Virus genome (UHGV): UHGV-0208736
Strand: one strand, 5' to 3'
DNA length: 31,562 nt
Origin: a virus
Made by a program: the position numbers and the translations under genes. Under the pieces are notes generated by a model. The model had not been told where the DNA came from, searched no databases, and was given only the letters and a program-made list of their open reading frames with translations. Positions 2,917 to 28,130 of the stretch are shown here, one piece after another (position 1 is the stretch's first letter; each line of letters starts with the position of its first letter).

Positions 2917-4337
2917 TTCTTACCTCGTCTCTTCATGTAATTAAGCAATTCTTCCTGTACCGATTTCTTCTCGTCTGTACGCGCGGCAACAACCTCGTCC
3001 AGCGTGTCTTTAGCAACGATGTGATAGAGGAATACCGGGCGTTCGTGGCCTGCCTGCTTCTGGCGGACCGGGCCTATACGCTCGACAACCTGCAAATAGT
3101 GCTCAAGGTTCCAGCCTTGCGAAATAAACGCCAGATGGTGACCGCCGTCCTGTAAATTCAAACCATGCCCGGCTGACGCAGGATGCACGCATAAGATTTC
3201 GATTTCGCCTCGGTTCCACGCCTCCATCTGCTTATTACCCTTCGCACCTTTAGAAAATGCCTGTGCCTGAGGGAATCGCTTAAGGATGCGTTCCAGTTCG
3301 TGCTTAAACTGATAGGCCACCAGTAACGGCGCACCCTGTAACTCCTCGACAATGGATTCCAGCGCATCCAGTTTCGTGTCATGAACTTTCTCCCAGTCTT
3401 TTGTTGCTTCGCCGTCCGGCCCTGATATGTACACTGCGCCGGATGCAATCTGCAAGCACTTCGACGTCTTCGCCGCTGCGTTAGCTGCTTCAACTTCTCC
3501 GCTTTCCAGCTCCGCGAATAGCTTCTCTTCCATGTCGATGTACGCCTGACGTGCTTTTTTCGGCAGGTCAATTTCAACCGGCACGATAATCGGCGCTTCA
3601 CACCCAAACCACTCGGCGGCGTCAATCGTGAGGCTGATGTCTTTCATCTTCTGGTGAATTTCGTTATCGGCGCCCGGGCGTGCGTGATACTCGCGGGCCA
3701 TCGCCGACTTACCTTTCTGTACAGAGTTAAACCATCGGTCGGTGAATGCCGTGTACGAAGAGCCGAGGCGCTCGCCTGCATCGATAAACCAGTTCTGACC
3801 CCACAAGTCCTTGAGGCCGTTTGGTGATGGCGTACCCGTCAGGTTAATGAAGCGCTTAACCTTTCCGAACGCCACTTTGCTAAGCGCCTTTGCCCTCTTG
3901 CTACCACCAGAACGGCTACGGAACGATTTCAGCTTCGTGCTTTCATCGGCAACGATAACAGTAAAAGGCCAGTCGTCTTTGCCGTAGTAGTCAATCAGCC
4001 ACTCGATAACTTCGTAGTTTGTACACACCACGTTAGCGTCTGACTCCAGCGCCGCGATACGGCGCTTCTCTGAACCTGTCGCATCGACGACGCTCAGACA
4101 TGGGAATTGCCATTTCTCTTGTTCCGCGGGCCATGTACCCGATGCAACGCGCAACGGGGCGAGGATTAACACCCGGTCCTCTTCCGTAAGCTGCCCGTTG
4201 CGGAACAGGCGGTTTAGAACCCACATTGTCGACGAGGTCTTGCCGCCGCCCATACCGCACCATATATTGCAACGTGGGTGCTGTAACATAAACGACGTCA
4301 TTATTTTCTGATATTCCCTGCGCCTAAACTTACTCAT
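2913..4337 (-). CDS. ATP-dependent DNA helicase, superfamily 2 (SNF2/DEAD-like)
   Basis: 474 aa; Walker A GMGGGKTS, DExx-like box IVADESTKL; start ATG overlaps stop of upstream HNH gene (ATGA); SD GGGGAG upstream. Confidence 0.7.
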   Translation of the reverse strand: MSKFRRREYQKIMTSFMLQHPRCNIWCGMGGGKTSSTMWVLNRLFRNGQLTEEDRVLILAPLRVASGTWPAEQEKWQFPCLSVVDATGSEKRRIAALESDANVVCTNYEVIEWLIDYYGKDDWPFTVIVADESTKLKSFRSRSGGSKRAKALSKVAFGKVKRFINLTGTPSPNGLKDLWGQNWFIDAGERLGSSYTAFTDRWFNSVQKGKSAMAREYHARPGADNEIHQKMKDISLTIDAAEWFGCEAPIIVPVEIDLPKKARQAYIDMEEKLFAELESGEVEAANAAAKTSKCLQIASGAVYISGPDGEATKDWEKVHDTKLDALESIVEELQGAPLLVAYQFKHELERILKRFPQAQAFSKGAKGNKQMEAWNRGEIEILCVHPASAGHGLNLQDGGHHLAFISQGWNLEHYLQVVERIGPVRQKQAGHERPVFLYHIVAKDTLDEVVAARTDEKKSVQEELLNYMKRRGKK

Positions 4338-4831
4338 GCCTTGAACTCCCCGAAGTATATTTCCGCGGCTCTTTGGTATACGCGCGACGCTTCTTCTATA
4401 GTGTCAAAATAGCCAAGGTGGATGTATTTGTTATTGACGCCTATTCTGGCGCGCCACCTGCCAGAGGGTATTTGGTAGACCCCTATCGCACCGCTAGTGT
4501 TATGTGGTGAGCAGTCTCGGTTCTGAATCTGCTGGCTCCTGGTTGCTGGCCTTATATTATTTATGGCGTTATTAGCCCTGTTACGGTCTTTATGGTCAAG
4601 CTCACCATTATGATATTCTCCGTAGACGAAAGCCCATGCCAGATGGTGGGCTTTTATTCTTACACCGGAGACCGTAATAACTATGTATCCTTTGTCGTTT
4701 GGTCCCCCGGCTACCTCCCCCGCATTTCTACCTTTTATGCTTACTTTCCGTGTAAATATGCCTGTTTCGGGGTCATAGTTAAGAAGACGTTTCGCCTCCT
4801 CAATATCAGGCCTTCTAGTTAATTTACTCAT
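4334..4831 (-). CDS. HNH homing endonuclease with AP2-type DNA-binding domain
   Basis: 165 aa; HNH core HHLAWAFVYGEYHNGELDHKDRNRANNAINNIRPAT; AP2-like GVYQIPSGRWRARIGVNNKYIHLGYFDTIEEASRVY; ATGA overlaps on both sides. Confidence 0.8.
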   Translation of the reverse strand: MSKLTRRPDIEEAKRLLNYDPETGIFTRKVSIKGRNAGEVAGGPNDKGYIVITVSGVRIKAHHLAWAFVYGEYHNGELDHKDRNRANNAINNIRPATRSQQIQNRDCSPHNTSGAIGVYQIPSGRWRARIGVNNKYIHLGYFDTIEEASRVYQRAAEIYFGEFKA

Positions 4832-5019
4832 TTCAACACCAGTACCAGCTCTTTACGTCCAAACGCCGTAACGTTACCTGTTACATCTTCGATAACCAGT
4901 TTACCGTTCGACTCTACGAACACCGTATCAACAGCAACAGGCTGGCGGGTTTTAACATTGAAAATCATGTCGCCAGGTACGATGTCACGTGCTGGTTTGC
5001 GGTCATATTCATGTTTCAT
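4828..5019 (-). CDS. hypothetical protein (63 aa), first gene downstream of promoter P1
   Basis: ORF with AAGGAA SD 7 nt upstream of ATG at 5019; stop overlaps HNH start. Confidence 0.5.
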   Translation of the reverse strand: MKHEYDRKPARDIVPGDMIFNVKTRQPVAVDTVFVESNGKLVIEDVTGNVTAFGRKELVLVLK

Positions 5020-5049
5020 TTCTCAATTCCTTATATTGTTGGTGTAGGA

Positions 5050-5334
5050 TTAACTATAATAGTTAGCTATTAGGTCGTCAACCTGTTTAAACGAACCAAC
5101 GACAAAAACATTTGCGCCACGTTTACGCATACGCTCGTGTTCTCGTAACTGGTGCGGGTCAGGTTTCGTGTTTTCGTCTTTCTTCACCTCTACGAACCAG
5201 ACGGTGCCGCCGGGGAGAATTACCAGCAGGTCGGGGGCGCCGGAACGCCCCTCGTACGAAAGTTTACGAACGAGGCCGCCCAGGGCCTCGAATCGCTCTT
5301 TTGCGTATTTCTGTACGCGTCCCTCTTTAGTCAT
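5050..5334 (-). CDS. VRR-NUC domain nuclease (PD-(D/E)xK superfamily)
   Basis: 94 aa; PDLLVI...VWFVEVKK...PHQLREHERMRKRGANVFVV matches VRR-NUC D...E-x-K pattern. Confidence 0.7.
   Translation of the reverse strand: MTKEGRVQKYAKERFEALGGLVRKLSYEGRSGAPDLLVILPGGTVWFVEVKKDENTKPDPHQLREHERMRKRGANVFVVGSFKQVDDLIANYYS
5053..5081 (-). promoter_or_regulatory. sigma70-type promoter P1 (minus strand): -35 TTGACG, 17-nt spacer, -10 TATAGT; contains 20-bp conserved core AACTATAATAGTTAGCTATT (plus 5052-5071)
   Basis: Reverse complement reads TTGACG-N17-TATAGT; the 20-bp core is identical to 11861-11880 and near-identical to 9362-9381; lies at the 3' end of the VRR-NUC gene immediately upstream of gene 4828..5019. 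Confidence 0.5.
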
Positions 5335-5888: not shown

Positions 5889-8148
5889 AACGGTACACCT
5901 CTTCCCCGGCCCATGTTAGTGGGAACCCTTTGGCCCATTCAGGTAATGAGCATAACAGGTCGCCCATCTCTTTAACCGTGTACTCCGGTGTGTCTGGTGT
6001 TTCGGCGACACACTCATCGTGTACGTGAAGTACAATTGGGTAGCCCGCTGCCTCGACCGTCAGGAGTCCGTTGACCAGTAAATCACGGCACAACGCTTGA
6101 ATGATGTTTTCACACAATTTTCCGCCGTGTGTGTACAAAGTCGTCCACTGGCGGGTGGTCTGATTTTCGCCCTGGTATTTAATGCGAACGTTAGTTGTTA
6201 CGCGCCCATCCTCGTCGGTCTCTTTAGTGACGCTTAAACCTATACCAGGGTAGGACATGATGCGCCCAGACGGCAGTTCCACACACAACCACCAACCCGG
6301 CACAAAGTTACCCTGTCTGTCTTTCTCTTTAGTACGCCAGATGCGAATAGCCCTGTCGCCGTTAAGGCGTACTCTGGCCCCCGCCCAAAACTCTCGTCCC
6401 GGATTTCTGATTGCAGCAATCACCGAATCCTTAAGGTCGTTCCAGAATCTCACTGTTTCCGGATGGGCCTCGCGCCACATGCGCTTGATAGCGTCGCAAG
6501 TGCGCCAGACTTCCTTAGGCAACACGTAAGAGGCCCGTTCGTCCTTTTTACCAGGTTTTGGCGGCCGCTTAGCCTCCTGAATCCGCGCCCATTCATAGCC
6601 TCGGGCAGTGGCGGCCCATATATGGTCAGGGAATGTCCCCCGCATTGTCTCCGTCATTTTAAAGAGGTCCAGCCCATAAGTTTTAGCCATAGTCATGAAG
6701 GCCCCTACACCTCCCTCGTAGCCGAGGCCCAGCTCGCAACATTTCCCGACCTGTCGTAGGTCTTTACGGGTGGCTTTCAGCTCTATAGGATCCATGCCAA
6801 ACATCTTGCCCGCAGTGGCGCAATAAATATCAATCCCCGCGCGGAACGTCTCAAGGGCAGATGTCTCCCCCGCCGTCCAGGCTAACCCACGGCCTTCCAC
6901 GTTCGAGTAGTCGGCAACGAGTAACTTATTACCTTTTTCCGGGATGATGCAGCTGCGGACAGTCGAGGCCGTTAGCTTAGATACATCAAAACGGCGATGC
7001 GCCCGGCCCTTTAAAAGCAAATTGATGCCGAAGGATAGCGGGTTAAGCCTGCGGTTCCAGTCTTCGTCGGACTCCCACGGCTGGCGTACGAGTTTCTTTT
7101 CCTCGTTAGTCGGGTCGTCGTGGTAGTACCCACGCGACAGGTTCTGCGGCTGGAACCCTTTGCCCGCAAATCGTAAAGTGCGCTTTGCCCCACCGTACTG
7201 GATGCAACCACGGCGTCGTCCGTCTTTGGACCGTCCTAGCAGGAGCGGTTTATATTTTGTTGACGCCGTGGAGGCCGCGCCGAGGCGCATCTCAATGATT
7301 GTGCGCGCATCGTTAGGTAAGTCGTCGTCCTCTAGCAAACCTTCGAGCGTTGCTTTCTGCGCATTATAAATATTGTAGGCCGGTGCCAGTTCCCGAAGGA
7401 TTGGCAGGAAGTCTTTGCCCGTTAGCTTCCCGCCAAATTTCGCGCGGGCCTCGTTTTTTAGCTCTTGCTTGTGACGTTCAACTGCCGCGACCGCCGCCTC
7501 AGCAAGAGCCGTATCGACAAAGAAGCCTCGGTCGTTGATTAGCTGGTCCAGTTCCAGTACACGGTCTTCGAACTCAGAGTTACCCCAACGCGGCAGCTTA
7601 TGGAAGACCTCACGCATTGCAGTGATGTCGCTTACGGCGTACTTGATGAACAGCGCCCACTCGTCCGGGTGTGTTTCCGCGGTGTAGCGACGGATTTTGT
7701 AGTTCTTCGGCGTCGGTTTAGAGAAACGCTGAATCAGCGCCTTGCCCCGCTTATCTTTCGCGTTGTCCGCAGATACTCCCAGCACTTCGCATAATGCATC
7801 GAGTGAACCCGGCAGCGCGTGGCGAAACGCCCAAATCATCGTATCAATGGTGTTGCTTACCGGAATATCAAAACCCCAGCAGTGCTTCATGATGAGCCTA
7901 TCGAACATTAAAAAGTTATGGCCCACGATTTTCATACGTCCGCGCATAACATTACGGAGCGCCATGCGTAGGCTTATTGGCATTACTGGTTCGGAAGTGC
8001 AATCCCATACTTCTACTGGACCATCATCAACGGCATACGTACAAATTATAACCTCTGTCGTTGGGTGCTCCGCATACGCATACGACCCGACTTTCTTTAA
8101 GTCTGCTTCGGAGAATGTCTCGGTATCCAGGTATAATAAACTAGTCAT
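5878..8148 (-). CDS. DNA polymerase, family A, with N-terminal 3'-5' exonuclease domain
   Basis: 756 aa; Exo I motif YLDTETFS; polymerase motif A LLVADYSNVEGR; motif C VLHVHDECV; AAGGAA SD upstream of ATG 8148. Confidence 0.85.
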   Translation of the reverse strand: MTSLLYLDTETFSEADLKKVGSYAYAEHPTTEVIICTYAVDDGPVEVWDCTSEPVMPISLRMALRNVMRGRMKIVGHNFLMFDRLIMKHCWGFDIPVSNTIDTMIWAFRHALPGSLDALCEVLGVSADNAKDKRGKALIQRFSKPTPKNYKIRRYTAETHPDEWALFIKYAVSDITAMREVFHKLPRWGNSEFEDRVLELDQLINDRGFFVDTALAEAAVAAVERHKQELKNEARAKFGGKLTGKDFLPILRELAPAYNIYNAQKATLEGLLEDDDLPNDARTIIEMRLGAASTASTKYKPLLLGRSKDGRRRGCIQYGGAKRTLRFAGKGFQPQNLSRGYYHDDPTNEEKKLVRQPWESDEDWNRRLNPLSFGINLLLKGRAHRRFDVSKLTASTVRSCIIPEKGNKLLVADYSNVEGRGLAWTAGETSALETFRAGIDIYCATAGKMFGMDPIELKATRKDLRQVGKCCELGLGYEGGVGAFMTMAKTYGLDLFKMTETMRGTFPDHIWAATARGYEWARIQEAKRPPKPGKKDERASYVLPKEVWRTCDAIKRMWREAHPETVRFWNDLKDSVIAAIRNPGREFWAGARVRLNGDRAIRIWRTKEKDRQGNFVPGWWLCVELPSGRIMSYPGIGLSVTKETDEDGRVTTNVRIKYQGENQTTRQWTTLYTHGGKLCENIIQALCRDLLVNGLLTVEAAGYPIVLHVHDECVAETPDTPEYTVKEMGDLLCSLPEWAKGFPLTWAGEEVYRYAK

Positions 8149-8614
8149 GGCAATAAAATTCCTTATGCAGTTTTTCTCTTAATTTCTTTACCGCGCTTTC
8201 TGCTTCTTCAAGAGTTCCGTAGCTACCAGCATTGTAACTTTTGTAGTTAAAGTGTACCCGCCCATAAAATCGGTTGCCGTTTTTAACTACTCCCTTAACT
8301 CCCGTTCTAGCTCCCTTATTTTTAGCGTTTCGCACATTATCTGCGGTGGTTGCTTTCCTTAGGTTAGAAATCCTATTGTCTAACCTGTCTCGGTTTATGT
8401 GGTCAAGAGGTCCCTCGGGCCATTCACCGTACTCGAAAAACCAAGCAAGCCTGTGGGCCATGTAATATCTGCCCATATAAGGTATTCGCCAGTATCCACT
8501 ACTATTGATGCATCCTGCGATGTCTCCAGGTTTTCCTCGTCTGTACGTAGGTTGTATCCATGTGAATATCCCGGTTTCTCGGTTATAGCTAAGAAAATCT
8601 TTTATATGTTCCAT
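8141..8614 (-). CDS. HNH homing endonuclease with AP2-type domain (start taken at ATG 8614; the track start at 8638 is TTG)
   Basis: HNH core MAHRLAWFFEYGEWPEGPLDHINRDRLDNRISNLR; AP2-like GVKGVVKNGNRFYGRVHFNYKSYNAGSYGTLEEAESA; AT-rich relative to neighbours; stop overlaps polymerase start by 8 nt. Confidence 0.75.
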   Translation of the reverse strand: MEHIKDFLSYNRETGIFTWIQPTYRRGKPGDIAGCINSSGYWRIPYMGRYYMAHRLAWFFEYGEWPEGPLDHINRDRLDNRISNLRKATTADNVRNAKNKGARTGVKGVVKNGNRFYGRVHFNYKSYNAGSYGTLEEAESAVKKLREKLHKEFYCHD

Positions 8615-8626
8615 TCTGACTCCGGT

Positions 8627-8649
8627 AAAAAGGCCCAATGAAGGGCCTT
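8627..8649 (-). terminator. rho-independent terminator on minus strand after the SSB-like gene
   Basis: Minus-strand RNA: AAGGCCC-UUCAUU-GGGCCUU followed by UUUACC; 20 nt downstream of the TAA at 8669-8671. Confidence 0.45.
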
Positions 8650-12188: not shown

Positions 12189-14450
12189 CTATTCCAAATC
12201 TTCCTCGGTTACTATCAGCATCTCATTCGGTTCGTATATTGTCTTCGGAATCTTGTTATCGTTTATGCCCCACGGCAACCGGTATTGCTTAGGTATAGGC
12301 CTGTTGTTGTTATCCAGACCTGAGACGATAATCCCGGCCTCGTGCATCTCCTCCAGTTTCTTTCGAAGGTCGTTATTAGCATTAATTGGTACGCCGTAAC
12401 TATCTTCTTTCGCCGCTTTGACGATAGCTGACATAGAGAACCCTCGTTTATCGTCACCCTGCTCCTGCAATTTACCCAATGCGTAAATAACCGTAGCCTC
12501 TTTGGTGTCCAGTTTCTCGAACTGGCCTACCTTTTCTTTAACGGCTTCCTTCTGTTCGTCGGTCAGACCTTCTACTTTCTTCACGAAGACAGAGAATGCG
12601 TTGAAGTTAACAAAGACATCAATATGCGGATTTCCTGCGTCAAAATCGCGTACATCATCACTACTATACCCTTCCGGAAGACCCATGAAGTTGTGAGTTG
12701 GTTCTTTCTTTTCTGGCGGCTCCGCTATCTGAATCTTCTGTATTACGAACCCTCTGGCTTTTTGCCGTTCTCCGTTTCGGTTCTTTATGTGGTACAGGTT
12801 TATCTCTAAGTTATTGTCGTTGTCCGGCTTATGCAGGAACATCCCGTTGTCGATGGAGTTGTGGAAATCACTACCACCCTTCGGCATCATGCCGTTCTCG
12901 GATGGTACTGTTTCGTCGATGTTTTTAGTCGGGTGCACCATAGCGCCTACCGCGGCGTTAAGCGTCGACGCTATTTCGTTAAGCGCCTGCGCCGCCTCTT
13001 TCATCGACCTGTTGTCGTTCTCGTCAAAACCAGGTATGCAAGTTTGCAGGGTATCAAACGTAACCTTTACAATTTTCTCTTCACCGGCAACACGACGCAT
13101 CATTCTCACCGCCTGGCGGCGCCACACCTCATCGAGTAAGTTACACCCTTCCGCGACACAATCGATGATGTGCAAGCGGTCAAGGCTATCGCCGAGGGCA
13201 ATCTGTAAAGATTTTTTATGCCTCTCGAACGACTGCGCACCTTCTCCAGCGAAAATGAACGCATGCCCTTCAGCAACCTCTGCCCCGCCGAACGCATATC
13301 TTTTTTCGGCAGCAATAGCGGCGTCAATCGCCATACTAAATGTTGACTTACCAGTGTGGGACTTTGCACAAATGTAGAATGATTCGTTAGTCTGCATAAG
13401 ACCGTCCACTACGGAGTAAGCAGGTTCTTTTTCTACTTCCGGCTCGTCTTCAAGGTCTTCAAGCGTGCAAGTTACAGGCTCCTCGTTCTCTGTGCGGTGC
13501 AGTTCTTCAATATCTTCATCCGGTAAATCAGGCAGAGCCGCACGGATGCTATTAATACTGATAGGTTGCTTGTCTACGTTAAGCTCGTCCGGAAGACCGC
13601 ACATACGCAGGGCCAAATGCTGCCGACGGTTTAGCTCAGTGCAAGCGCCATTGTTTGTATGCTGGCAGACAAAGCGCACTTCTTTACCGTCAAGCATGAT
13701 GCTTGTGGAGCCTTTGCCGGTATGCAGATGTTCGTTAGGGCATGGAACTTCGTACCCGCGCCCGGAAGATAAAGCGTCAAGGCCAAGCTCCGCTTCGCAG
13801 AAATGCGCTATATCAGCGTTAAGCCCATGCTCATCGGCAGCAAGTGTCTTAGCTTCACGTTTACGCAGCCCCATCTCTTCGGCTTTCTTGATGTACCGCT
13901 CCGCACGGATAACGCGCCCTTCAGTAACAGTTATCTTTGACTCTTTATGAGGCAGGTAGATAAGGCGGTTGCCGTCTTCGGTGCAGTGGTCGCGCAACGC
14001 TTCGTCTATTTCTAACTCCGCACAAATAGCACGTTGCACCATCCATGCATCGTTAGAGTTAAATGGAGTGCGGGCAGGTACGAGAACGCGGAAAGCGTAG
14101 TCACCGTTTTTACACGCGTGCTGGTGCGACGCCGTTGTGTGCAGAATATTGAAGAACGTCGCGTTCTTGAATTTGCGGGTAAGGTCGCGGTACTGAGTAC
14201 GGTTGAGATGGTCAAAGTCGAACTTAACCACACTATCTTCCAGAATCGCGTTCTTACGGCGACCCCCAACAGGTGCAATTGCTTTCTGCTTAATCTTGGC
14301 AGCGTCGTACTCTTCCTTAGACCACGACGGATCCACGGATAAACGCTTGGATGTATCGCAGACATACTCTACGAACTGCTCCAGCGGCATTTCACGAGCT
14401 ACAGGGTTTTTATCGAATGTGTTGCGCAGTGTCGCAAAAACAATATTCAT
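12189..14450 (-). CDS. DNA primase-helicase-like replication protein: archaeo-eukaryotic primase (AEP)-type N-terminal domain plus P-loop NTPase domain
   Basis: 753 aa; AEP-like motifs KFDFDH (DxD) and TTASHQH (sxH); Walker A AKSHTGKST; Walker-B-like LHIID. Confidence 0.6.
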   Translation of the reverse strand: MNIVFATLRNTFDKNPVAREMPLEQFVEYVCDTSKRLSVDPSWSKEEYDAAKIKQKAIAPVGGRRKNAILEDSVVKFDFDHLNRTQYRDLTRKFKNATFFNILHTTASHQHACKNGDYAFRVLVPARTPFNSNDAWMVQRAICAELEIDEALRDHCTEDGNRLIYLPHKESKITVTEGRVIRAERYIKKAEEMGLRKREAKTLAADEHGLNADIAHFCEAELGLDALSSGRGYEVPCPNEHLHTGKGSTSIMLDGKEVRFVCQHTNNGACTELNRRQHLALRMCGLPDELNVDKQPISINSIRAALPDLPDEDIEELHRTENEEPVTCTLEDLEDEPEVEKEPAYSVVDGLMQTNESFYICAKSHTGKSTFSMAIDAAIAAEKRYAFGGAEVAEGHAFIFAGEGAQSFERHKKSLQIALGDSLDRLHIIDCVAEGCNLLDEVWRRQAVRMMRRVAGEEKIVKVTFDTLQTCIPGFDENDNRSMKEAAQALNEIASTLNAAVGAMVHPTKNIDETVPSENGMMPKGGSDFHNSIDNGMFLHKPDNDNNLEINLYHIKNRNGERQKARGFVIQKIQIAEPPEKKEPTHNFMGLPEGYSSDDVRDFDAGNPHIDVFVNFNAFSVFVKKVEGLTDEQKEAVKEKVGQFEKLDTKEATVIYALGKLQEQGDDKRGFSMSAIVKAAKEDSYGVPINANNDLRKKLEEMHEAGIIVSGLDNNNRPIPKQYRLPWGINDNKIPKTIYEPNEMLIVTEEDLE

Positions 14451-14575: not shown

Positions 14576-14625
14576 TGTATAATCCTTGTGCTTACTTTGA
14601 TGATTTGTACTTTAACCCCGACGTT

Positions 14626-14859
14626 CTAGCGTTGGGGTTTCTTTTGCCTACGTGCAGCATTAATCCACTCTCCTTCGCTCTGGTAGAAACTGCAATCAAG
14701 AATATCCTCTATAGAAAATTTAACTATTTTAGTGGGTCCACAAAAGTTATAAGGGAAAAGTTCTACATAACACCCATCGTCAGTTATATTTGACGCAATC
14801 TTGAAATAATATTTAACGCTGCCGTCTTCACGGAAGCTACAACCCATACGCCCAATCAT
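14626..14859 (-). CDS. hypothetical protein (77 aa), AT-rich gene
   Basis: ORF with ATG overlapping stop of the upstream HTH gene; markedly lower GC than flanking genes. Confidence 0.45.
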   Translation of the reverse strand: MIGRMGCSFREDGSVKYYFKIASNITDDGCYVELFPYNFCGPTKIVKFSIEDILDCSFYQSEGEWINAARRQKKPQR

Positions 14860-15026
14860 TTCACGTTCTCCTTAATCCACGCTTCAACTTTATTACGGTC
14901 AAATGTTCCCGGCATCCGGCGGCCCATTACTTTAACGCTGCAATCAGGAAACTTTCCACTCTTAATCCAGTTATTAATTGTCTGACGCGTCACCCCGATA
15001 CGTTCTGCAACTTCATTGATAGTCAT
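14856..15026 (-). CDS. unannotated AlpA/excisionase-type helix-turn-helix regulator (56 aa), first gene of the primase operon
   Basis: MTINEVAERIGVTRQTINNWIKSGKFPDCSVKVMGRRMPGTFDRNKVEAWIKENVK; HTH plus conserved W matching the AlpA/Xis-like HTH_17 pattern; SD AGGAGA 5 nt upstream; below track cutoff. Confidence 0.6.
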   Translation of the reverse strand: MTINEVAERIGVTRQTINNWIKSGKFPDCSVKVMGRRMPGTFDRNKVEAWIKENVK

Positions 15027-15131
15027 TTAACGTTCTCCTATGTAAGATGTACCGAAGTATAAGGCGGTAACTTTGTAAAAGCAACCAAAACACCACACAA
15101 AGTTACTAAGATACAAAAGATGCTACTGGTA

Positions 15132-15160
15132 TTGACTTTTACTAAGAAATATGGTAAGCT
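15132..15160 (+). promoter_or_regulatory. candidate late promoter: -35 TTGACT, 17-nt spacer, extended -10 TGgTAAGCT
   Basis: Seen directly in sequence; lies in the 360-bp gap between the divergent early and late modules. Confidence 0.45.
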
Positions 15161-15340
15161 CAGCCTGAGCTTGTGAAGTATGAACAAGCGACCGCGGCGC
15201 GGGCAGGTAACGGAGCGGGACGTAAGTCCTGAGTGTAGTTACGCTGACGCGTTCGGAAGGGCCATACTCTATTGCTTGTGTAAAAAGTAACTGGTTTACT
15301 GAGATTACGCCGTTTCTATGTTTAAATGATAAGGACTAGC

Positions 15341-15368
15341 GCCCCGCTTTAAGGCGGGGCTTTACTTA
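15341..15368 (+). terminator. intrinsic terminator at the end of a ~200-nt leader, 18 nt upstream of the first late gene
   Basis: GCCCCGC-TTTAAG-GCGGGGC hairpin followed by TTTACTTATC; located between the promoter at 15132-15160 and the SD of the i-spanin gene. Confidence 0.55.
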
Positions 15369-15385
15369 TCGAGAAAGGGGGAAAC

Positions 15386-15772
15386 ATGAATCTTAAAGCA
15401 ACTGTCGTAGCAGGAGCATGTTTCATCATCCTGGCTTACGCACACGGCATCTACCAGTATCGCAGCGGCTGGAACGAAGGCCGGGCGAATCTCGTTTCGC
15501 AGCAACAGCAGAAAGCACAGGCCGAGTTAGCGAAGAAAACACAACGGCAGCAGCAGAACGAATCGAAGGCTGCAGCCGCTGACATCGAAGGCAAGACGAA
15601 ATCAGAGGTGATTACCCGTGAAGTCGTTAAGTACATTAAAACGCCTGGTCGCAGCGTGTGCACTTTCGATGATGCTCGCGTCCTGCTCAAGTCCCGCGCC
15701 GTCGCAAACGCCAATTCCATCCCCGGATACGACGATGATGCAGCCGCCGTGCAAACTGGCCGCGCCAAGTAG
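15386..15772 (+). CDS. i-spanin (Rz-like inner-membrane spanin subunit)
   Basis: 128 aa; N-terminal TM segment ATVVAGACFIILAYAHGIY followed by Gln/Lys/Ala-rich coiled-coil periplasmic domain; strong SD GAGAAAGGGGG; contains embedded o-spanin gene in another frame. Confidence 0.6.
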   Translation: MNLKATVVAGACFIILAYAHGIYQYRSGWNEGRANLVSQQQQKAQAELAKKTQRQQQNESKAAAADIEGKTKSEVITREVVKYIKTPGRSVCTFDDARVLLKSRAVANANSIPGYDDDAAAVQTGRAK

Positions 15773-15881
15773 CGACGCGGACGAGGATTTGGCTATCGAC
15801 GTTCAGAATGCCGAATGTGTACGGCAGCTAAGACTGAAAGTGTTCATGTTGCAGGATTACGTGCGGAATATTCTGGAATAG
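15618..15881 (+). CDS. o-spanin (Rz1-like outer-membrane lipoprotein), overlapping the i-spanin gene in the +1 frame and extending 109 nt beyond it
   Basis: GTG start with SD AGAGGTG; lipoprotein signal MKSLSTLKRLVAACALSMMLAS|C with lipobox LASC; Pro-rich mature region SSPAPSQTPIPSPDTT. Confidence 0.6.
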   Translation: MKSLSTLKRLVAACALSMMLASCSSPAPSQTPIPSPDTTMMQPPCKLAAPSSDADEDLAIDVQNAECVRQLRLKVFMLQDYVRNILE

Positions 15882-15963
15882 TTGCCTTGCATGTTGGAAT
15901 AATTTATTCTTGACATGTAAATCCGGGTGGCCCGGATTCCAACGTCCAGGGGACATACTGACT

Positions 15964-16665
15964 ATGAATCGTTTTTTACGTTATCCGTTCCAGGAAGAAG
16001 CTGGGGCAGAAGATAAATCTGGTGGCGGTGATGCGCCGAAAATGTTCACCGCTGAAGAAGTTCAGGCGCTGATTGAGAAAGAAGTCGCCGGGCTTAAGGC
16101 TAATCAGGAAGCATTGCTGGCGGAGAAGAAAGAAGCCGCTCGTAAAGCAAAAGAGGCCGAAGAAGAACGGCAGCGCGCACACCAGGAGGCGTTAAAAGCC
16201 GCTGGTAAGATGGACGAGTTCGAAAAGACGATTCGTAGCCAGTATGACCCGGTGTTAGCCGAGAAAGATGGTCGCATCTCCAGAATGGCAGAGCGCATCC
16301 TCGGCAGCGAACGTAAAGCGGTGTTAGGCTCTTTCGCGGGTGACTTTATTACCCCGGAAGCAGTAGACATTCTTGCACCGTTCGTTAAGACTGAGTTTGA
16401 AGGTGATGATGTGGTTACTAAGTTTGTCGGTGCAGATGGCAACGTAATCACGACTGACCCGGAACAGTTCCGCAAATACCTGCGCGAACATAAAGCGTTT
16501 TCGCATTTGATTAAAGCAAATGCAGCTTCCGGCGGCGGGGCTTCCGGCAGCAAAGGCGGCGGGGCCGCACCAGCGTTTAAAGACATGAGTGAAGCAGAGC
16601 GTTTAGCTCTGTATAAATCGAACCCTGCCGAATTTGAACGGCAACTTAAAGCCCTGAGGAAATAA
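15964..16665 (+). CDS. capsid scaffolding protein (233 aa from ATG 15964; the track start at 15910 is TTG)
   Basis: Charged coiled-coil-rich protein (EEVQALIEKEVAGLKANQEALLAEKKEAARKAKEAEEERQ) immediately upstream of the major capsid gene. Confidence 0.55.
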   Translation: MNRFLRYPFQEEAGAEDKSGGGDAPKMFTAEEVQALIEKEVAGLKANQEALLAEKKEAARKAKEAEEERQRAHQEALKAAGKMDEFEKTIRSQYDPVLAEKDGRISRMAERILGSERKAVLGSFAGDFITPEAVDILAPFVKTEFEGDDVVTKFVGADGNVITTDPEQFRKYLREHKAFSHLIKANAASGGGASGSKGGGAAPAFKDMSEAERLALYKSNPAEFERQLKALRK

Positions 16666-16667
16666 TA

Positions 16668-17717
16668 ATGGCAATTACCACTATCGGCGATATCGTAACT
16701 GGCAACATCCCGGTCCTTGCGTCTTATATGACAGAGGACCCGGTAGAAAAAACCGCGTTCTTCCAGTCCGGTATTCTCACCCCTACCCCGTACGCTGCCG
16801 AGATTGCTCGCGGTCCGTCCAACATCGCTAATATCCCTTTCTGGAAAGCGATTGATACATCTATCGAACCGAACTACTCGAACGACGTATACCAGGACAT
16901 CGCAACCCCGCGTAATGTCCAGACCGGTGAGATGATGGCTCGCGTAGCGTACCTGAACGAAGGTTTCGGTCAGGCGGACCTGACGGTAGAACTGACCAGT
17001 CAGAACCCGCTGCAATCCGTAGCGTCCCGTCTGGATAACTTCTGGCAGCGCCAGGCACAACGTCGTCTGATTGCTACCGCGCTCGGCCTGTACAACGACA
17101 ACGTAGCTGCGACCGATGCGTACCACGAGCAGAATGACATGGTTATCGACGTGTCTGCTACTATGGGCTTCGACTCTGGCGCGTTCATCGACGCTACTCA
17201 GACTATGGGTGATGCGCTGATGGGTAACGGTGGTGAAGTGCTGGGTGCTATCGCGATGCACAGCTTCGTTTATGCGCAGGCCCGTAAGCAGCAGCTTATC
17301 GACTTCATCCGCGATGCGGACAACAACACCATGTTCGCCACCTACCAGGGCTATCGTGTGATTGTTGATGACAGCATGACCGTAGTCGGTACTGGCGGCA
17401 GCCGTAAGTTCATCTCCATTATCTTCGGCAACGGCGCTATCGGTTACGGCGAAGGTAACCCGGTCAAACCGCTGCACTACGAGTACGAAGCGTCCCGTGG
17501 TAACGGTGGTGGTGTCGAAACCCTGTGGACCCGTAAGACCTGGTTACTGCATCCGTTCGGCTACAGCTTCACCAGCGCAGTAATCACCGGCAACGGCACC
17601 GAGACCGTCGCACGCTCCGCTTCCTGGCAGGACCTGGCGAACGCCTCCAACTGGAACCGTGTGGTTGAGCGTAAGCACGTGCCGATTGCCTTCCTGGTAA
17701 CTGGTGTAGGCGCTTAA
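16668..17717 (+). CDS. major capsid protein
   Basis: 349 aa; follows scaffold with SD GAGGAA; strongly biased codon usage; followed by strong UUCG-loop terminator. Confidence 0.65.
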   Translation: MAITTIGDIVTGNIPVLASYMTEDPVEKTAFFQSGILTPTPYAAEIARGPSNIANIPFWKAIDTSIEPNYSNDVYQDIATPRNVQTGEMMARVAYLNEGFGQADLTVELTSQNPLQSVASRLDNFWQRQAQRRLIATALGLYNDNVAATDAYHEQNDMVIDVSATMGFDSGAFIDATQTMGDALMGNGGEVLGAIAMHSFVYAQARKQQLIDFIRDADNNTMFATYQGYRVIVDDSMTVVGTGGSRKFISIIFGNGAIGYGEGNPVKPLHYEYEASRGNGGGVETLWTRKTWLLHPFGYSFTSAVITGNGTETVARSASWQDLANASNWNRVVERKHVPIAFLVTGVGA

Positions 17718-17732
17718 GGTTAAGCTATAATC

Positions 17733-17760
17733 GAGAGGGACTTCGGTCCCTCTTTTCATT
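17733..17760 (+). terminator. rho-independent terminator after major capsid gene
   Basis: AGAGGGAC-TTCG-GTCCCTCT hairpin followed by TTTCATTT. Confidence 0.6.
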
Positions 17761-17776
17761 TACTAAGAGGTAAAGT

Positions 17777-18076
17777 ATGGCTAAGACCGGAAAAGGCTTA
17801 CCGCGCAGCCTTCAGAACGTTGACTTCGGCGACTTTGATATCCCCGTCGCACCGGCTACTACCAGCGCAGTTGGTGGGGTTAAAAAGTCAGCTACTGTAG
17901 CTGCGCCAGCAGCCATTACCGCTGCCGCCGGGGTGCAGTCCGCTGCGGACCCGACTAAGGCAGAGTTCGATGCGCTTGTAGCGGAGTACAACAAACTCCG
18001 AACCGATGTTACTGCGCTACGCACTACCGTAGCAAATTTGTTGACTGCGCTTAAAAACGCAGGAACTGTAAGCTAA
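17777..18076 (+). CDS. hypothetical virion protein (99 aa), possible head decoration protein
   Basis: Ala/Thr-rich ORF with SD AAGAGG; position between capsid and Ig-like protein genes. Confidence 0.4.
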   Translation: MAKTGKGLPRSLQNVDFGDFDIPVAPATTSAVGGVKKSATVAAPAAITAAAGVQSAADPTKAEFDALVAEYNKLRTDVTALRTTVANLLTALKNAGTVS

Positions 18077-22246: not shown

Positions 22247-22252
22247 AACTAA

Positions 22253-22276
22253 GGCCCCTTTCGGGGCCTTTTTCTT
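22253..22276. terminator. bidirectional rho-independent terminator between major tail gene and the minus-strand accessory island
   Basis: GGCCCC-TTTC-GGGGCC followed by TTTTTCTT (plus); on minus strand the same hairpin is followed by UUAGUUUUAU. Confidence 0.6.
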
Positions 22277-22514: not shown

Positions 22515-23015
22515 CTATTTATAACCGTTGTTGAATGTTGTCAGCCCGTGGTTTATGTGGAATTTATTGGCTACGGACATGTAAATTCTTTCCGCAAAAG
22601 CGTCCTCTATTCTGTCAAATGTTTTACTAATCTGCTTGCCATTGACAACGGCATACGCTCTCCACTTAGTTTTTCCTTTCCGCGCCACGCCAGTAACTCC
22701 AGAGGTATTATCTTTGCGCCTTTTCACGTTAACCATGTTGTCCCTTCTTGATTTGCAGGACAGGTTTTCAATTCTGTCATCACATGTATCATGGTTAGTG
22801 TGGTCTATGACAAATCCTTTCGGAATCTTACCTGAGAACATCTCATACACCACCCTCGACCTTTTAAACTTACGGTTGCCAAACATGACGTACCAATAGC
22901 CGTTTTTACACAAACTCCCAGCCACATCACCTACATTCACATCGTTACGGCGACACGATTTTACTTTCCAGTATAGGACGCCGTTTTTGTAGCTAAAAAC
23001 TTCGCTCCAGTCCAT
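22515..23015 (-). CDS. HNH homing endonuclease with AP2-type domain (third copy)
   Basis: HNH core GFVIDHTNHDTCDDRIENLSCKSRRDN; AP2-like GVTGVARKGKTKWRAYAVVNGKQISKTFDRIEDAFAERIY. Confidence 0.75.
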   Translation of the reverse strand: MDWSEVFSYKNGVLYWKVKSCRRNDVNVGDVAGSLCKNGYWYVMFGNRKFKRSRVVYEMFSGKIPKGFVIDHTNHDTCDDRIENLSCKSRRDNMVNVKRRKDNTSGVTGVARKGKTKWRAYAVVNGKQISKTFDRIEDAFAERIYMSVANKFHINHGLTTFNNGYK

Positions 23016-24223: not shown

Positions 24224-24415
24224 TCACTTCTCTTTAACGTTCGAGTTGCAAGCCCAGATTAAAATAAATACCCACGGCAGCAGAACCCAGCCAAGAAACA
24301 GATTAGCAGTGAATATCGCTAATTTCGCTTTATGGTCACGGAAGTATGCAACCAGGAAAGGCGCGAAATAAGCGAGCAGTGCAAACAGAATTAAGGAAAC
24401 TGGTAAACTGGACAT
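24224..24415 (-). CDS. superinfection-immunity-like small membrane protein (63 aa from ATG 24415)
   Basis: MSSLPVSLILFALLAYFAPFLVAYFRDHKAKLAIFTANLFLGWVLLPWVFILIWAC; two TM segments around a basic loop and an NLFLGW motif resembling the Imm/superinfection-immunity family (from memory); SD AAGGGG upstream of Met29 of the track ORF. Confidence 0.55.
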   Translation of the reverse strand: MSSLPVSLILFALLAYFAPFLVAYFRDHKAKLAIFTANLFLGWVLLPWVFILIWACNSNVKEK

Positions 24416-24432: not shown

Positions 24433-24489
24433 TTGGTGTAAGTGAATAGTACCCTATTATATTGGGGTGCGCAAGTAATGTGATAGAAT
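24433..24489. promoter_or_regulatory. divergent promoter region: plus-strand TTGGTG-N16-TATTAT and TTGGGG-N16-TAGAAT; minus-strand TATAAT (plus 24456-24461) for the accessory island
   Basis: Seen directly; located in the 167-bp gap between the island and the tail chaperone gene; the minus -35 (ATCACA) is weak. Confidence 0.35.
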
Positions 24490-24999: not shown

Positions 25000-25364
25000 A
25001 CGCGCTGTACAGGTTCGCCACCTACGAGTTTGTGGATAAGCATAAAATCAGAGAGTTTGATTCTATAGCTGACGGGCACGAACAGGCGCTTATCGCGATG
25101 GGTGTAATCGATAAGAAAAAACGTGCAGCGCGACGGGGTGGGCCAGAATGCCCGCCCCTTTTTATATCCACCTTTGAAACGTACTGTGACATTAAGTTTA
25201 CGCGACACGTGCGCGAGGACGCTGTAGTATTGTTTGCAAGAGAATCCGTTACGTGGCAAGACCTGAAAGCCTATCTCGATGTTACGCAAAAACAGCTTAG
25301 CCTGTTCGAGATAGACATTATCATGGGCTTAGAAGCAATCTTTGAAGGTAGAAATCATGGCTGA
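24969..25364 (+). CDS. tail assembly chaperone frameshift extension (gpT-like portion of a G-T fusion), -1 frame
   Basis: The -1 frame is open from 24969 to 25364, overlapping the last 10 codons of the G gene; no good in-frame ATG/SD of its own (the track start is GTG at 25032). Confidence 0.45.
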   Translation, partial: RRAQSITGKVDALYRFATYEFVDKHKIREFDSIADGHEQALIAMGVIDKKKRAARRGGPECPPLFISTFETYCDIKFTRHVREDAVVLFARESVTWQDLKAYLDVTQKQLSLFEIDIIMGLEAIFEGRNHG

Positions 25365-27630
25365 TACCGCTAGCTTGATAGTACGAGTATCATCGACCGG
25401 CGTCGATAAAACCACATCACAACTGAACGGGCTTACCAAAGCCGCTGGCGCTGCCGCTGCTGCCGTTGTCAGTCTGGAAACCGCTAAGCAGGTGTTCAGC
25501 GCGCTGGTGGACTCCCAGCGCAACTTCGATAAGCTGAACTCCGGCCTCATCACGATGACCGGGAGCGCAGAGAACGCGGCTAAAGCTTTCAGCGTCCTGC
25601 AACAGTTCGCAAAAGAAACACCATACGGACTTAATCAGGCGGTGGAAGGCTTTACTAAGCTGGTGGCTCTTGGTCTGAACCCCAGCAAAGAGGCATTAAT
25701 CTCCTACGGCAACACCGCGGCCGCCATGGGTAAAGACCTTAATCAGATGATTGAGGCAGTTGCCGACGCCAGTACCTTTGAGTTTGAGCGACTAAAAGAG
25801 TTTGGCATCAAGTCGTCGCAACAGGCGGATACAGTGTCGTTCACGTTCCGCGGCGTTACCACCACGGTTAAAAAGAACTCCGAAGAGATTCAGAAATACC
25901 TCCTGAACATCGGTAACACTGATTTCGCCGGGGCGATGGAGACGCGCTCGAAGACATTAGACGGTCAGTTATCCAGCCTCGCCGACTCCTTCGATGGCCT
26001 TGTTCTCGCCGTAGCGCAGTCTGGTTTTGGTGACGCCGTAGGTGAGCAAGCGGCCACAGCGGAAGACGCTATCACGGCGCTTACCGACGCCATCGCGTCT
26101 AATGAGATAGCCGCCACGCTCCAGGATTGGGTAACGTTGTTCAATGAGTCATTCAAGTTTATTTCCGACGCCTTGAATGACCTGGCATTCGATACCGAGG
26201 ACAAATCCGTTGATATGTCTGACTCGCTGGGGACTATACCGGATGCCATCCGTGAGTGGCTGCCGGACATCCAGCAGACATTTCACGAGGTTATTGCGTG
26301 GTTCCAGCGCATTGACGATTACGCCGTAGCGCTTGGCCAGACCCTCGCCGATGTGTTTGACCCGAGCAAAACGGCAGCGCTCACATTTAAAAAACTGACT
26401 GCAGAGGCTGATGCCGCATACGACGCCAGCATAAAACGCGCAGAGGCAGAATCACAGGCCATTACCAACAGGTCTAAGCAGCGTAAGAAAGAAATTGAGG
26501 AACAGCGCAAGCAGTATGACGAGCGCAAGAAGCAAGAAATTGACTTAGCCAGCCTTGTTAATAAAAAGGGCGGAACTGGTGGGGCGGGGACAACCGACGA
26601 TAAAGCAGCAAAAGCCGCCGCCAAGAAAGCAGAGCAATTGCGTAATCAGGCGCAAGACTACCTCGACACTTTGGCCCGTCAGAACAACGACGAGTTAAAG
26701 GCTATTGACGCGCAGGAACAGCAGAAACTGGCTAAAGCAAAAGAGTTCTACAGCCAGGGCGCGCTGTCGCTGAAAGAATACGAGCAAGCAAAAACGGCTA
26801 TCGTCCTTGAAGCTGGACAAAAACGACAAGATGAACTGGATAAACGCCAGAAAGAAGCTCAGGAAAAGCAGCAGAAAGGCGACGACTTCATGGCTCAGAT
26901 TATGGGCCAGAACGCCACTGAGCTTGAGCTTCTCGACATCCAGGAACAGCAGAAACTGGCGGTCGCCGATAAATACCGCGAACAGGGGCTGATTAACGAG
27001 GAACAGTATCAGGCGGCACTTAACGCTATCAACGAGCAATACGCAACCAAGCGTGCCGACGCAACGGCAACCGCCTTTGGTAATATGGCCTCAAACATCG
27101 GGTCCGCGTTGGGTGAGGCTTCTGGTGCGTATAAGGCATTCGCTATTGTGCAAGCCACTATCGCCACGTACACCGCAGCTATTGAAGCATATAAGTCAAC
27201 GGCCGCTATCCCTGTAGTTGGCCCGTTCCTGGCCCCCGTAGCCGCTGCCGCTGCCGTTGGGGCTGGGATGGCGCAGATTTCCGCTATCAGGTCTGCGCGT
27301 GAACAGGGCGGCCAGCTATCAGCGGGGCAGGCTTCCACCATCGCTGAACGTGGTAAACCAGAAGTTATCATGCCCGCTAGCGCATCACGTGTACGCACAG
27401 CACAGCAAATGAAAGAAATTATGGGGCAAAACGGGTCTTCTTCCGGACCGTCTAATGTTACCATCGTAAACAACACGAGTTCTCAAATCGGCAACGTATC
27501 CACTGAGCAAGACGATGAGGGGCGTCTTCGTATCATCATCGAAGAGCAAGTTGCCGCATCTTTGCAGAACAGCAACAGTAAGATTAGCAAGGCCCGCAAG
27601 GCCACAAGAAACGCGCCGGGGTTCAAGTAA
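25357..27630 (+). CDS. tail tape measure protein
   Basis: 757 aa from ATG 25357; long Ala/Gln/Lys/Glu-rich coiled-coil; hydrophobic Gly/Ala-rich segment (AIPVVGPFLAPVAAAAAVGAGMAQ); internal in-frame repeats; follows G/GT. Confidence 0.8.
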   Translation: MADTASLIVRVSSTGVDKTTSQLNGLTKAAGAAAAAVVSLETAKQVFSALVDSQRNFDKLNSGLITMTGSAENAAKAFSVLQQFAKETPYGLNQAVEGFTKLVALGLNPSKEALISYGNTAAAMGKDLNQMIEAVADASTFEFERLKEFGIKSSQQADTVSFTFRGVTTTVKKNSEEIQKYLLNIGNTDFAGAMETRSKTLDGQLSSLADSFDGLVLAVAQSGFGDAVGEQAATAEDAITALTDAIASNEIAATLQDWVTLFNESFKFISDALNDLAFDTEDKSVDMSDSLGTIPDAIREWLPDIQQTFHEVIAWFQRIDDYAVALGQTLADVFDPSKTAALTFKKLTAEADAAYDASIKRAEAESQAITNRSKQRKKEIEEQRKQYDERKKQEIDLASLVNKKGGTGGAGTTDDKAAKAAAKKAEQLRNQAQDYLDTLARQNNDELKAIDAQEQQKLAKAKEFYSQGALSLKEYEQAKTAIVLEAGQKRQDELDKRQKEAQEKQQKGDDFMAQIMGQNATELELLDIQEQQKLAVADKYREQGLINEEQYQAALNAINEQYATKRADATATAFGNMASNIGSALGEASGAYKAFAIVQATIATYTAAIEAYKSTAAIPVVGPFLAPVAAAAAVGAGMAQISAIRSAREQGGQLSAGQASTIAERGKPEVIMPASASRVRTAQQMKEIMGQNGSSSGPSNVTIVNNTSSQIGNVSTEQDDEGRLRIIIEEQVAASLQNSNSKISKARKATRNAPGFK

Positions 27631-28130
27631 TGAGCGACTTATTTTTTCCACGTAGCCTTAAGCCTATCGTATCGAAAGGCTACTCGATGACCAGACGTAA
27701 CAACGTCTGGAGTGTCGATTTAGCCGGTGGCGGTGTGCGTCAGGGTCGTGACACGTATTACGACGTGTTCCCGATAAGCGTAACTCTGGTTACATCAGCG
27801 TTAGGGCGGCAGGCGTTTCTGTCGTTCCTTGAGAAAGTAGACGGCGGTGCGTCAAGTTTCTGGATGGCGCACGACTTCGGCATGGGTATCGAAGATTACC
27901 AGGTAACAATCACGTCCACCATCGCGGAATCCACCGAAGACGGCATTAATTGGACGATTTCTTTCACAGCAACCGCGGAGAAATCACCGTTTCAGGATGA
28001 AGATAACCATTGCCTTGTTAACAATCTGCCGGATTTGTATGGTTGCTATGGTGACGGGCTGGGATGCTTCCTTAAAGCCTACGGAACCGCGCAATCAACG
28101 TTTCCACGAATTTGGGACCCGATGCAATGA
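27630..28130 (+). CDS. minor tail protein, gpM-like
   Basis: 166 aa; ISVTLVTSALGRQAFLSFLEKVDGGASSFWM parallels the lambda gpM pattern (SVTLSV...FLEEHGGWKSFLW, from memory); first gene after tape measure. Confidence 0.5.
   Translation: MSDLFFPRSLKPIVSKGYSMTRRNNVWSVDLAGGGVRQGRDTYYDVFPISVTLVTSALGRQAFLSFLEKVDGGASSFWMAHDFGMGIEDYQVTITSTIAESTEDGINWTISFTATAEKSPFQDEDNHCLVNNLPDLYGCYGDGLGCFLKAYGTAQSTFPRIWDPMQ

Follow-up and report, generated by a model that had tools for sequence, protein, structure and literature searches.

Lambda-type spanins are presumed to act as a complex that spans the periplasm and disrupts the outer membrane. Phages with scattered lysis genes include T4 (e, t and pseT.3/pseT.2) and T7, in which gene 3.5 lies apart from 17.5 and 18.5/18.7. 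Among spanins whose genes overlap, the largest family is the Jersey i-/o-spanin family, which has 27 members, including those of phages Jersey, SETP3, SE2, K1G, K1H, K1ind1-3 and others (Kongari et al., 2018; PMC6139136). In this family the two genes overlap by 155 bp, and residues Cys45 and Cys67 of the o-spanin are constant (PMC6139136). The same study gives reasons why the o-spanins of overlapped pairs tend to be overlooked or annotated with a wrong start (PMC6139136). In the paper describing phage Golestan, the holins are ORF66/67, the endolysin is ORF68 and the spanins are ORF7/8.

The locus examined here, 15386-15881, lies in a viral DNA stretch of 31,562 nt, which is referred to as the window. 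A megablast search with 14800-17800 retrieved 489 phage records. The best matches were E. coli Kagunavirus genomes at about 94% identity, including ST20, K1ind2, Bas73 and Golestan, followed by several hundred records of Salmonella phages from the same subfamily. Identity to those Kagunavirus genomes is about 88% over the left half of the window. Look-ups of exact matches to the i-spanin, capsid protein and tailspike of the window yielded no recorded protein. By sequence comparison the window is a new strain or species of Kagunavirus (Guernseyvirinae). The relatives at about 94% identity annotate both ORFs of the locus as spanins, in line with a first-pass annotation that had read the pair as a two-component spanin of the Rz/Rz1 type. 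The positions of the features are collected in Table 1.

Table 1. Positions of the genes, signals and joint in the window.
Feature	Position	Strand	Description
Tailspike gene	1-2238	+	phrog_29731; ATG is window base 1
HTH/excisionase-like regulator gene	14856-15026	-	PF12728, E 1e-9; first gene of the leftward replication operon
Sigma-70-like promoter, extended -10	15132-15160	+	TTGACT, 17 nt ending TGG, TAAGCT; 'early-operon' variant
Crossover interval	15163-15200	.	38 nt shared without mismatch by both leader copies of relatives; from alignments
Structured leader RNA	15164-15269	+	SL1 and long three-helix SL2; covariance model
Intrinsic-terminator-like hairpin	15341-15368	+	8 bp, 7 of them G-C, T-rich tail; hairpin 15341-15360
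i-spanin gene	15386-15772	+	ATG start, 128 aa; ORF list
o-spanin gene	15618-15881	+	GTG start, 87 aa; ORF list
Scaffold gene	15964-16665	+	phrog_206, E 3e-55; 98.7% identical to Golestan gp09
Major capsid gene	16668-17717	+	phrog_247, E 3e-118

The spanin pair and the Jersey family

The pair belongs to the published Jersey overlapped family and is already known. It has in common with the family an o-spanin in the +1 frame, a 155-bp overlap, products of 128 and 87 aa, the cysteines Cys45 and Cys67, and a place between the Hoc-like gene and the scaffold gene. The i-spanin is 95% identical to Golestan gp07 and 63-66% identical to the i-spanins of Jerseyviruses. In the Jersey RefSeq record the spanins are at 7501-7887 and 7733-7996, and the 87-aa o-spanin has an offset identical to that in the window. 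The signal peptide differs slightly, since it ends in L-A-S-C here, in L-S-A-C in other Kagunaviruses and in L-[SN]-G-C in Jerseyviruses. Otherwise nothing substantial sets the pair apart from the family, and only the upstream context differs in the window.

The o-spanin ORF starts 232 nt into the i-spanin ORF, which places it in the +1 frame, shares 155 nt with it (15618-15772) and extends 109 nt past the i-spanin stop. A Shine-Dalgarno sequence, AGAGGTG, is found at 15604-15610, 9 nt before the GTG at 15618. The first-pass annotation had the ORF coordinates, the GTG start, the LASC lipobox, the frame and the extension beyond the i-spanin stop exactly right. In tblastn searches 48 loci matched with identities of 63-97%. 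Of 53 related loci, 51 kept the two-frame geometry, with a start at +232 and an end 109 nt after the i-spanin stop. Kagunaviruses start the o-spanin with GTG, and several Jerseyvirus loci have ATG at the identical codon position; the lipobox cysteine is kept in all related loci. In the part of the gene that encodes only the o-spanin, variable sites numbered 13/35, 6/35 and 28/36 at the first, second and third codon positions of the o-frame, which is a coding signature.

The i-spanin matched phrog_2536 ('Rz-like spanin') over its full length with an E value of 3e-55. Its hydrophobic N-terminus, residues 5-23 (ATVVAGACFIILAYAHGIY), has a mean Kyte-Doolittle value of 1.72 and is predicted to form a single transmembrane helix, as in a type II membrane protein. 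The protein carries Cys92, and a single-sequence AlphaFold2 model has helices at residues 3-84 and 94-107, with pLDDT values of 76-89 only at residues 1-60 and below 50 in the C-terminal third. The o-spanin, which matched phrog_1267 (E 2e-18), has an N-terminus with the basic residues K2, K8 and R9, a hydrophobic core and a signal peptidase II lipobox, L-A-S-C23. The +2 residue is Ser rather than Asp, which fits sorting to the outer membrane. The mature part of 65 aa contains 8 Pro, and the cysteines at positions 45 and 67 of the 87-aa product are periplasmic.

These profile matches and the features of the Jersey family uphold the reading as a two-component spanin. At E<=0.01, neither protein matched the Pfam families PF03245 (Rz) or PF06085 (Rz1), which suggests that the pair is either a distant relative or a functional analogue of lambda Rz/Rz1 outside those families. 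From homology and sequence features, we infer that the two genes at 15386-15881 specify the two-component spanin of a siphophage of the genus Kagunavirus (Guernseyvirinae). The i-spanin would be anchored in the inner membrane by its N-terminal helix, and the o-spanin, translated from the GTG in the +1 frame, would be a small proline-rich outer-membrane lipoprotein. Because of the homology with the Jersey family and the analogy with lambda Rz/Rz1, the two proteins are expected to join in a complex across the periplasm, which would destroy the outer membrane and so complete lysis. As in lambda, the system would have two components, a type II inner-membrane protein and an outer-membrane lipoprotein encoded in the +1 frame. 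Whereas lambda Rz1 is fully embedded in Rz, the o-spanin of the window overlaps the i-spanin gene and then runs beyond it.

Gene order in relatives and gene content of the window

The scaffold and capsid genes directly follow the spanins, as the first-pass annotation had read, and the pair is in the normal position for the family, directly before these two genes. In Bas73, Golestan and Jersey the gene order is TerS, TerL, portal, Mu-F head morphogenesis gene, Hoc-like gene, usually one or two small leftward genes, and the spanins. After the spanins come scaffold, capsid, head-tail and tail genes and the tailspike. The tailspike is followed by a leftward replication operon with the HTH gene at its end, and past the HTH gene a rightward early operon and the series holin-holin-endolysin lead back to TerS. 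The genomes of the relatives are 41-45 kb long.

In every relative examined, the holin-holin-endolysin genes are located about 8.5-9 kb upstream of the spanins. The first-pass annotation had described a split lysis cassette and had considered this a departure from the usual order. The spanins are indeed apart from holin and endolysin, but this separation is a conserved and published arrangement of the Guernseyvirinae and not a new departure. It differs from that in lambda, where Rz/Rz1 end an S-R-Rz/Rz1 cassette. The arrangement resembles that of T4 and T7 in that the spanin genes are not contiguous with endolysin and/or holin, but those phages have other protein families and another genome architecture. 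With both the pair and its separation already catalogued in phages of the Jersey and K1 type, the spanin finding as originally stated matters little.

The region upstream of the spanins is equally constant in relatives. The head-morphogenesis and Hoc genes were present there in all 46 IMG/VR loci that had enough upstream DNA and in 10 of 10 further contigs, which encode an identical scaffold protein; TerS, TerL and portal are found beyond Hoc in these loci and contigs wherever the fetched DNA extends that far. The packaging genes, which had been supposed to sit elsewhere, are thus immediately upstream of the spanins in all of these loci and contigs, as they are in the GenBank genomes examined, and this order is the ordinary one. 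On the other side of the gap, the HTH gene in all relatives faces the rightward early operon and not the spanins. All 10 contigs with an identical HTH protein have the early, holin, endolysin, TerS and TerL genes on its other side.

In the window, about 12 kb that every relative has between the HTH gene and the spanins is absent. This block holds the early genes, the holins, the endolysin, terminase, portal and the head morphogenesis gene, and probably the pac site as well. When Golestan proteins were used as tblastn queries, no homologue of TerS, TerL, portal, the head-morphogenesis protein, the two holins or the endolysin was found in the window, and PHROG and Pfam scans of the remaining window ORFs gave no packaging, holin or endolysin candidate. 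Those ORFs encode replication proteins, three HNH endonucleases, structural proteins and a superinfection-immunity protein, and the replication module is intact. A small protein with two transmembrane domains at 24224-24415 (- strand), the only such protein in the window, was considered as a hidden holin and rejected, as it belongs to the Imm_superinfect family (PF14373). The first-pass annotation was therefore right that holin, endolysin, portal and terminase genes are missing around the spanins, but they are missing because the block of about 12 kb is absent and not because the gene order is unusual.

The two ends of the window belong together. In relatives, the tailspike gene directly follows a tail gene, which in the window ends 12 nt before the last base, and window bases 31562 and 1 correspond to adjacent bases in Bas73 (22355/22356) and Golestan (22239/22240). 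The window is therefore a closed unit of 31,562 bp. Its first base is exactly the start of a start codon, which indicates that the sequence was rotated or cut, and it may have been excised from a larger, differently arranged record. It had been proposed that endolysin, holin, portal and terminase be located in the rest of the genome; the closed 31.5-kb unit contains none of them. Lacking the seven genes named above and falling short of 41-45 kb, the unit is not a complete Kagunavirus genome.

The joint within a repeated leader

The place where the block is absent coincides with a repeat. In Golestan, 37602-37745 and 4980-5123 form a direct repeat whose copies are 79% identical over 147 nt. The early operon is headed by one of them, and the second is upstream of the spanins. 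The window follows the early copy through the promoter to 15162 and follows the spanin copy after 15200, with the crossover interval in between. The longest stretch in which the two leader copies agree base for base measures 38 nt in Golestan and 46 nt in the IMG/VR contig L085. Our preferred reading, in which we have high confidence, is that the spanins are a known Jersey-type pair in their normal position, and that the window is a closed unit without the block of about 12 kb, joined within the leader repeat.

As for how the unit came to be closed, we consider an assembly artefact the most likely cause, and a probable one. A contig bounded by the two leader copies would have been closed falsely into a circle. 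Contigs that carry one repeat at both ends have identical ends, which is what circularity detectors seek. A Logan contig of a relative, assembled independently at k=31 (ERR7363238_1989; 31,059 nt), is 93% identical to the window, and one of its ends stops inside the shared run, at the equivalent of window position 15193. The IMG/VR contig behind locus L082 stops at the equivalent spot and continues into a Nextera adapter. Many assemblies, Logan included, cross the repeat and give contigs of 42-45 kb, so breakage at this point is not universal. The circle could not propagate as a phage, because the block holding terminase, portal and probably pac is missing.

An unlikely explanation is that the 31.5-kb circle is real, a deletion derivative (a defective or helper-dependent mini-genome) formed by homologous recombination between the leader copies. 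It would retain replication, head-shell, tail and spanin genes and lose the early, holin, endolysin, terminase, portal and head-morphogenesis genes, and the replication module of the window is intact as this explanation would have it. The joint also fits, as it is a clean, in-register hybrid leader that scores as full-length (134 bits), and identical runs of 38-46 nt are available for recombination between the copies. Leader copies do exchange sequence in nature. In L085 the early copy belongs to the type that L013 carries before its spanins, and in L081 the promoter at the early position is of the spanin type, so that, as judged from these sequences, the two leader positions have clearly swapped types during evolution.

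On the other hand, a circle that lacks terminase, portal and probably pac could not by itself be packaged, and it would have to be abundant to be assembled. Strict and relaxed patterns for the hybrid junction had no match in IMG/VR or the JGI metagenomes, and the strict pattern had none in GTDB genomes. There is thus no second example of the junction in these collections; the left-anchor control recovered 13 IMG/VR contigs with a normal early copy. No GenBank phage record crosses the joint, as 0 of 446 covered >=80% of 14600-15450. Furthermore, the output of an independent assembler stops at this spot for reasons that are purely technical. These points weigh against a real deletion and leave a falsely closed contig as the reading we prefer.

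Very improbable is a natural order in which the spanins come first in the late operon, and holin, endolysin, portal and terminase are elsewhere in a larger genome, as the first-pass annotation had supposed. The spanins have a promoter-like site of their own and are unlinked from holin and endolysin across the whole subfamily. However, the window is a closed unit, which leaves no visible 'elsewhere', the joint falls inside a repeat, and in all of the more than 65 related loci and genomes checked the packaging genes are immediately upstream. What had been read as an unusual order reflects a closed unit of 31.5 kb that lacks about 12 kb and is joined inside a repeat.

For practical use, the window is best handled as an incomplete or mis-closed genome, from which inferences about missing genes or unusual gene order are unsafe. 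The identical leader core of 38-46 nt is a predictable point of breakage or mis-joining in short-k assemblies of Kagunaviruses.

The leader RNA and small reading frames

The spanins head a transcription unit of their own, with a promoter-like site and a leader, and to this extent they do open an operon as the first-pass annotation had stated. That this operon is a late one is unproven, since its promoter and the early one are alike in kind. All leader copies keep the two hexamers, the TGn motif and the 17-nt spacing; a promoter scan did not call the candidate at 15132-15160. The leader in the window is a hybrid that contains the junction interval, with an early-type 5' flank and a spanin-type body.

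The leader structure was derived from single-sequence folds and a covariance-model alignment. These replaced RNAalifold on a plain MAFFT alignment, which returned the outer stem only because the interior was misaligned. In single-sequence folds all leader types take one shape. SL1 is closed by GCTTGT/ACAAGC in Kagunavirus and by ACGCT/AGCGT in Jerseyvirus. SL2 begins with an outer stem CCG.CGGNGCG/CGCNUU.CGG, followed by a middle stem and an apical hairpin. The covariance models gave scores of 134 and 120 bits for the window leader. They detected one copy in the window, two in Golestan and one each in Bas73 and Jersey, and with filters off no early-side copy, even a diverged one, was detected in Bas73 or Jersey.

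Covariation was assessed over 30 distinct sequences. Of the cells in the alignment, 94.6% were paired, a value that is to be read with the tendency of a covariance-model alignment towards the modelled structure, and 18 of 29 pairs had double compensatory changes. In slid controls, with partners shifted by 1-3 columns, pairing was 29-43%. The hairpins were also checked by eye in the raw sequences, where compensatory hairpins are evident, for example GGGAC/GUCC, GGUGC/GCAC, GUGCC/GGCAC and GGGCG/CGCCC, and GUAAC/GUUAC as opposed to GGAAC/GUUCC and GAAAC/GUUUC. A search of the whole window against Rfam gave no match at gathering thresholds, and 15100-15400 gave only chance-level hits at E<=10. 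We conclude that 15164-15269 is a well-supported conserved structured RNA that is absent from Rfam. A hammerhead-like reading of 'CUGAGUG...GAAAC' was rejected, as these motifs are not conserved between leader types.

An intrinsic-terminator-like hairpin is located about 70 nt downstream of the leader, immediately before the ribosome-binding site of the i-spanin. It is kept, with compensatory changes, in Kagunavirus and Jerseyvirus loci. Further terminator-like sites on the + strand are at 17733-17754, after the capsid gene, and at 25135-25158, in the tail module. The leader RNA, which heads up to two operons and has a terminator after it, is the sole item of the locus that deserves follow-up.

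The closest known parallel is the put RNA. RNAs of this type make RNA polymerase resistant to terminators in cis, via the beta' zinc-binding domain. In phage HK022, putL and putR are two promoter-proximal RNAs of about 70 nt with two stems each, which confer terminator resistance on RNA polymerase (PMC9378689). As with the put RNAs, a genome has at most two paralogous leaders, and each of them heads a long operon. The RNA begins within a few nt of a sigma-70 promoter and consists of two stem-loops in about 80-105 nt, with one or more intrinsic terminators downstream. In the window the structured part begins at roughly +5 to +10, counted from the presumed transcription start. No N- or Q-like phage antiterminator is annotated in Bas73, Golestan or Jersey. 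By analogy, the leader may act like a put antiterminator RNA.

The leaders and the put RNAs have no detectable homology in sequence or structure. With filters off, covariance model R2 gave a best E value of 4.6 against HK022, at a site other than PL or PR. SL2 is a long three-helix arm and not a put stem II, and some genomes, such as Bas73 and Jersey, carry the spanin-side copy only. A wider proposal, which we put forward tentatively and do not favour, is that the leaders form a new Guernseyvirinae family of cis-regulatory RNAs, non-homologous to put, that would allow put-like read-through of 15341-15360 and later terminators by host RNA polymerase; the repeats may in addition be a natural hotspot of recombination, so that the circle could be a genuine deletion product. 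Were the leader to prove an antiterminator, phages would offer a second and independent case of processive antitermination by RNA alone.

Two small reading frames at this locus affect database annotation. A 36-aa ORF (15180-15290) overlies the leader and is listed for Bas73 as a hypothetical protein; it was not accepted as coding. Several copies have lost its ATG, the indels are not multiples of three, and the changes are compensatory for RNA pairing. The other is a 47-aa product starting with MMQPPCK, which is the only o-spanin annotation in many GenBank and RefSeq records, those of Golestan and Bas73 among them, and on which phrog_5672 was built. That this short form is the true o-spanin, with a +1-frame ORF open by chance and only the i-spanin real, is hardly credible: it has neither signal peptide nor lipobox, whereas the 40 codons upstream of it are open in all loci, have a conserved GTG/ATG start and encode the basic n-region, the hydrophobic core and the lipobox cysteine, and both the Jersey RefSeq record and Kongari et al. 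(2018; PMC6139136), who documented systematic mis-annotation of overlapped o-spanins, use the 87-aa form. The GTG start and 87-aa product called by the first-pass annotation are thus better than the entry in many GenBank records. The o-spanin is cut to 47 aa in many database records, which also place a spurious small ORF over the leader.

The leader RNA and its paralogous copies

Close to the promoter, the leader RNA folds into SL1 and then a long SL2; an intrinsic terminator comes next, immediately upstream of the i-spanin gene. Covariation is strong, with 94.6% of cells paired and compensatory changes in 18 of the 29 pairs among 30 distinct sequences. No Rfam entry was found for this RNA. 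It may act as an antiterminator in the manner of the HK022 put RNAs, by analogy, although the two share no homology.

Many Kagunavirus genomes carry two leader copies, one in the early operon and one in the spanin operon; Bas73 and Jersey possess the spanin-side copy only. Because leader types found at the early position of one genome recur at the spanin position of another, sequence comparison indicates that the paralogous leaders recombine or undergo gene conversion in nature. One related locus, L082 (IMGVR_UViG_3300045988_013548), ends after locus position ~9610 in a Nextera adapter, CTGTCTCTTATACACATCTCCGAGCCCACGAGAC, placed directly after the leader's opening bases. The contig stops at the repeat, and the adapter there looks like contamination.

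Coordinates of the features in the window and in related loci
Feature	Window	Strand	Related loci	Remark
Promoter-leader-terminator region	15132-15368			RNA core 15164-15269
Leader paralogue			Golestan L002:37634-37740	
Leader			Jersey L061:7295-7396	
Leader-type comparison			L085 (IMGVR_UViG_3300045988_014597) 1607-1713 vs L013 6779-6885; also L081 4337-4441	
Small 'hypothetical protein' ORFs on leader RNA	15180-15290		Bas73 L001:5304-5414; Jersey gp08, L061:7265-7456	GenBank/RefSeq
47-aa o-spanin annotation	15738-15881 (equivalent)		Golestan L002:5586-5729; Bas73 L001:5861-6004	
Second repeat	24443-24476	-	Golestan L002:4873-4913, 14108-14149, 37910-37946	~35-40 nt
Strong terminator-like hairpins in structural gene block	17733-17754, 22251-22270, 25135-25158	+		
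Paralogous HNH homing-endonuclease genes (three)	4334-4831, 8141-8638, 22515-23015	-		phrog_99, E 1e-50 to 1e-61
Superinfection-immunity family protein	24224-24415	-		63 aa, two-TMD; PF14373, E 3e-12

Annotated reading frames in the leader and spanin region

The small ORFs that GenBank and RefSeq place over the leader are probably spurious, judging from the Kagunavirus 36-aa ORF: its ATG is missing from several copies, its indels have lengths that are not multiples of three, and substitutions keep the RNA pairing. In many records the only annotated o-spanin is a truncated 47-aa form without signal peptide or lipobox, which is also the form represented by PHROG phrog_5672. The real o-spanin gene encodes the conserved product of 87 aa, whose start codon is GTG or ATG.

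Other putative transcription signals

A second repeated element, with TTGCGC or TTGCAC separated by 17 nt from TACTAT, looks from these motifs like a sigma-70 promoter. Full-length relatives have three copies, located 5' of small leftward genes and of the first early gene. The window retains a single one, since the other two fall in the missing 12 kb. Within the structural block, terminator-like hairpins lie 3' of the capsid gene, at the close of the first tail block (this one bidirectional) and in the tail-chaperone region, respectively; genes downstream of them would require read-through.

Other genes of the window

The window has just one small membrane protein that might be confused with a holin, the product of 24224-24415, and its PF14373 membership rules that reading out. 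The HNH genes sit as insertions in the replication and tail-adjacent modules, and at several of these sites Bas73 or Golestan has no insertion. At 27630-28130 lies a gene for a 166-aa protein, equivalent to the N-terminal third of a 466-472-aa protein in Bas73 and Golestan, relative to which ~900 nt are missing. Since Jersey gp29, at the same position, is likewise 166 aa long, the short form may be natural variation.
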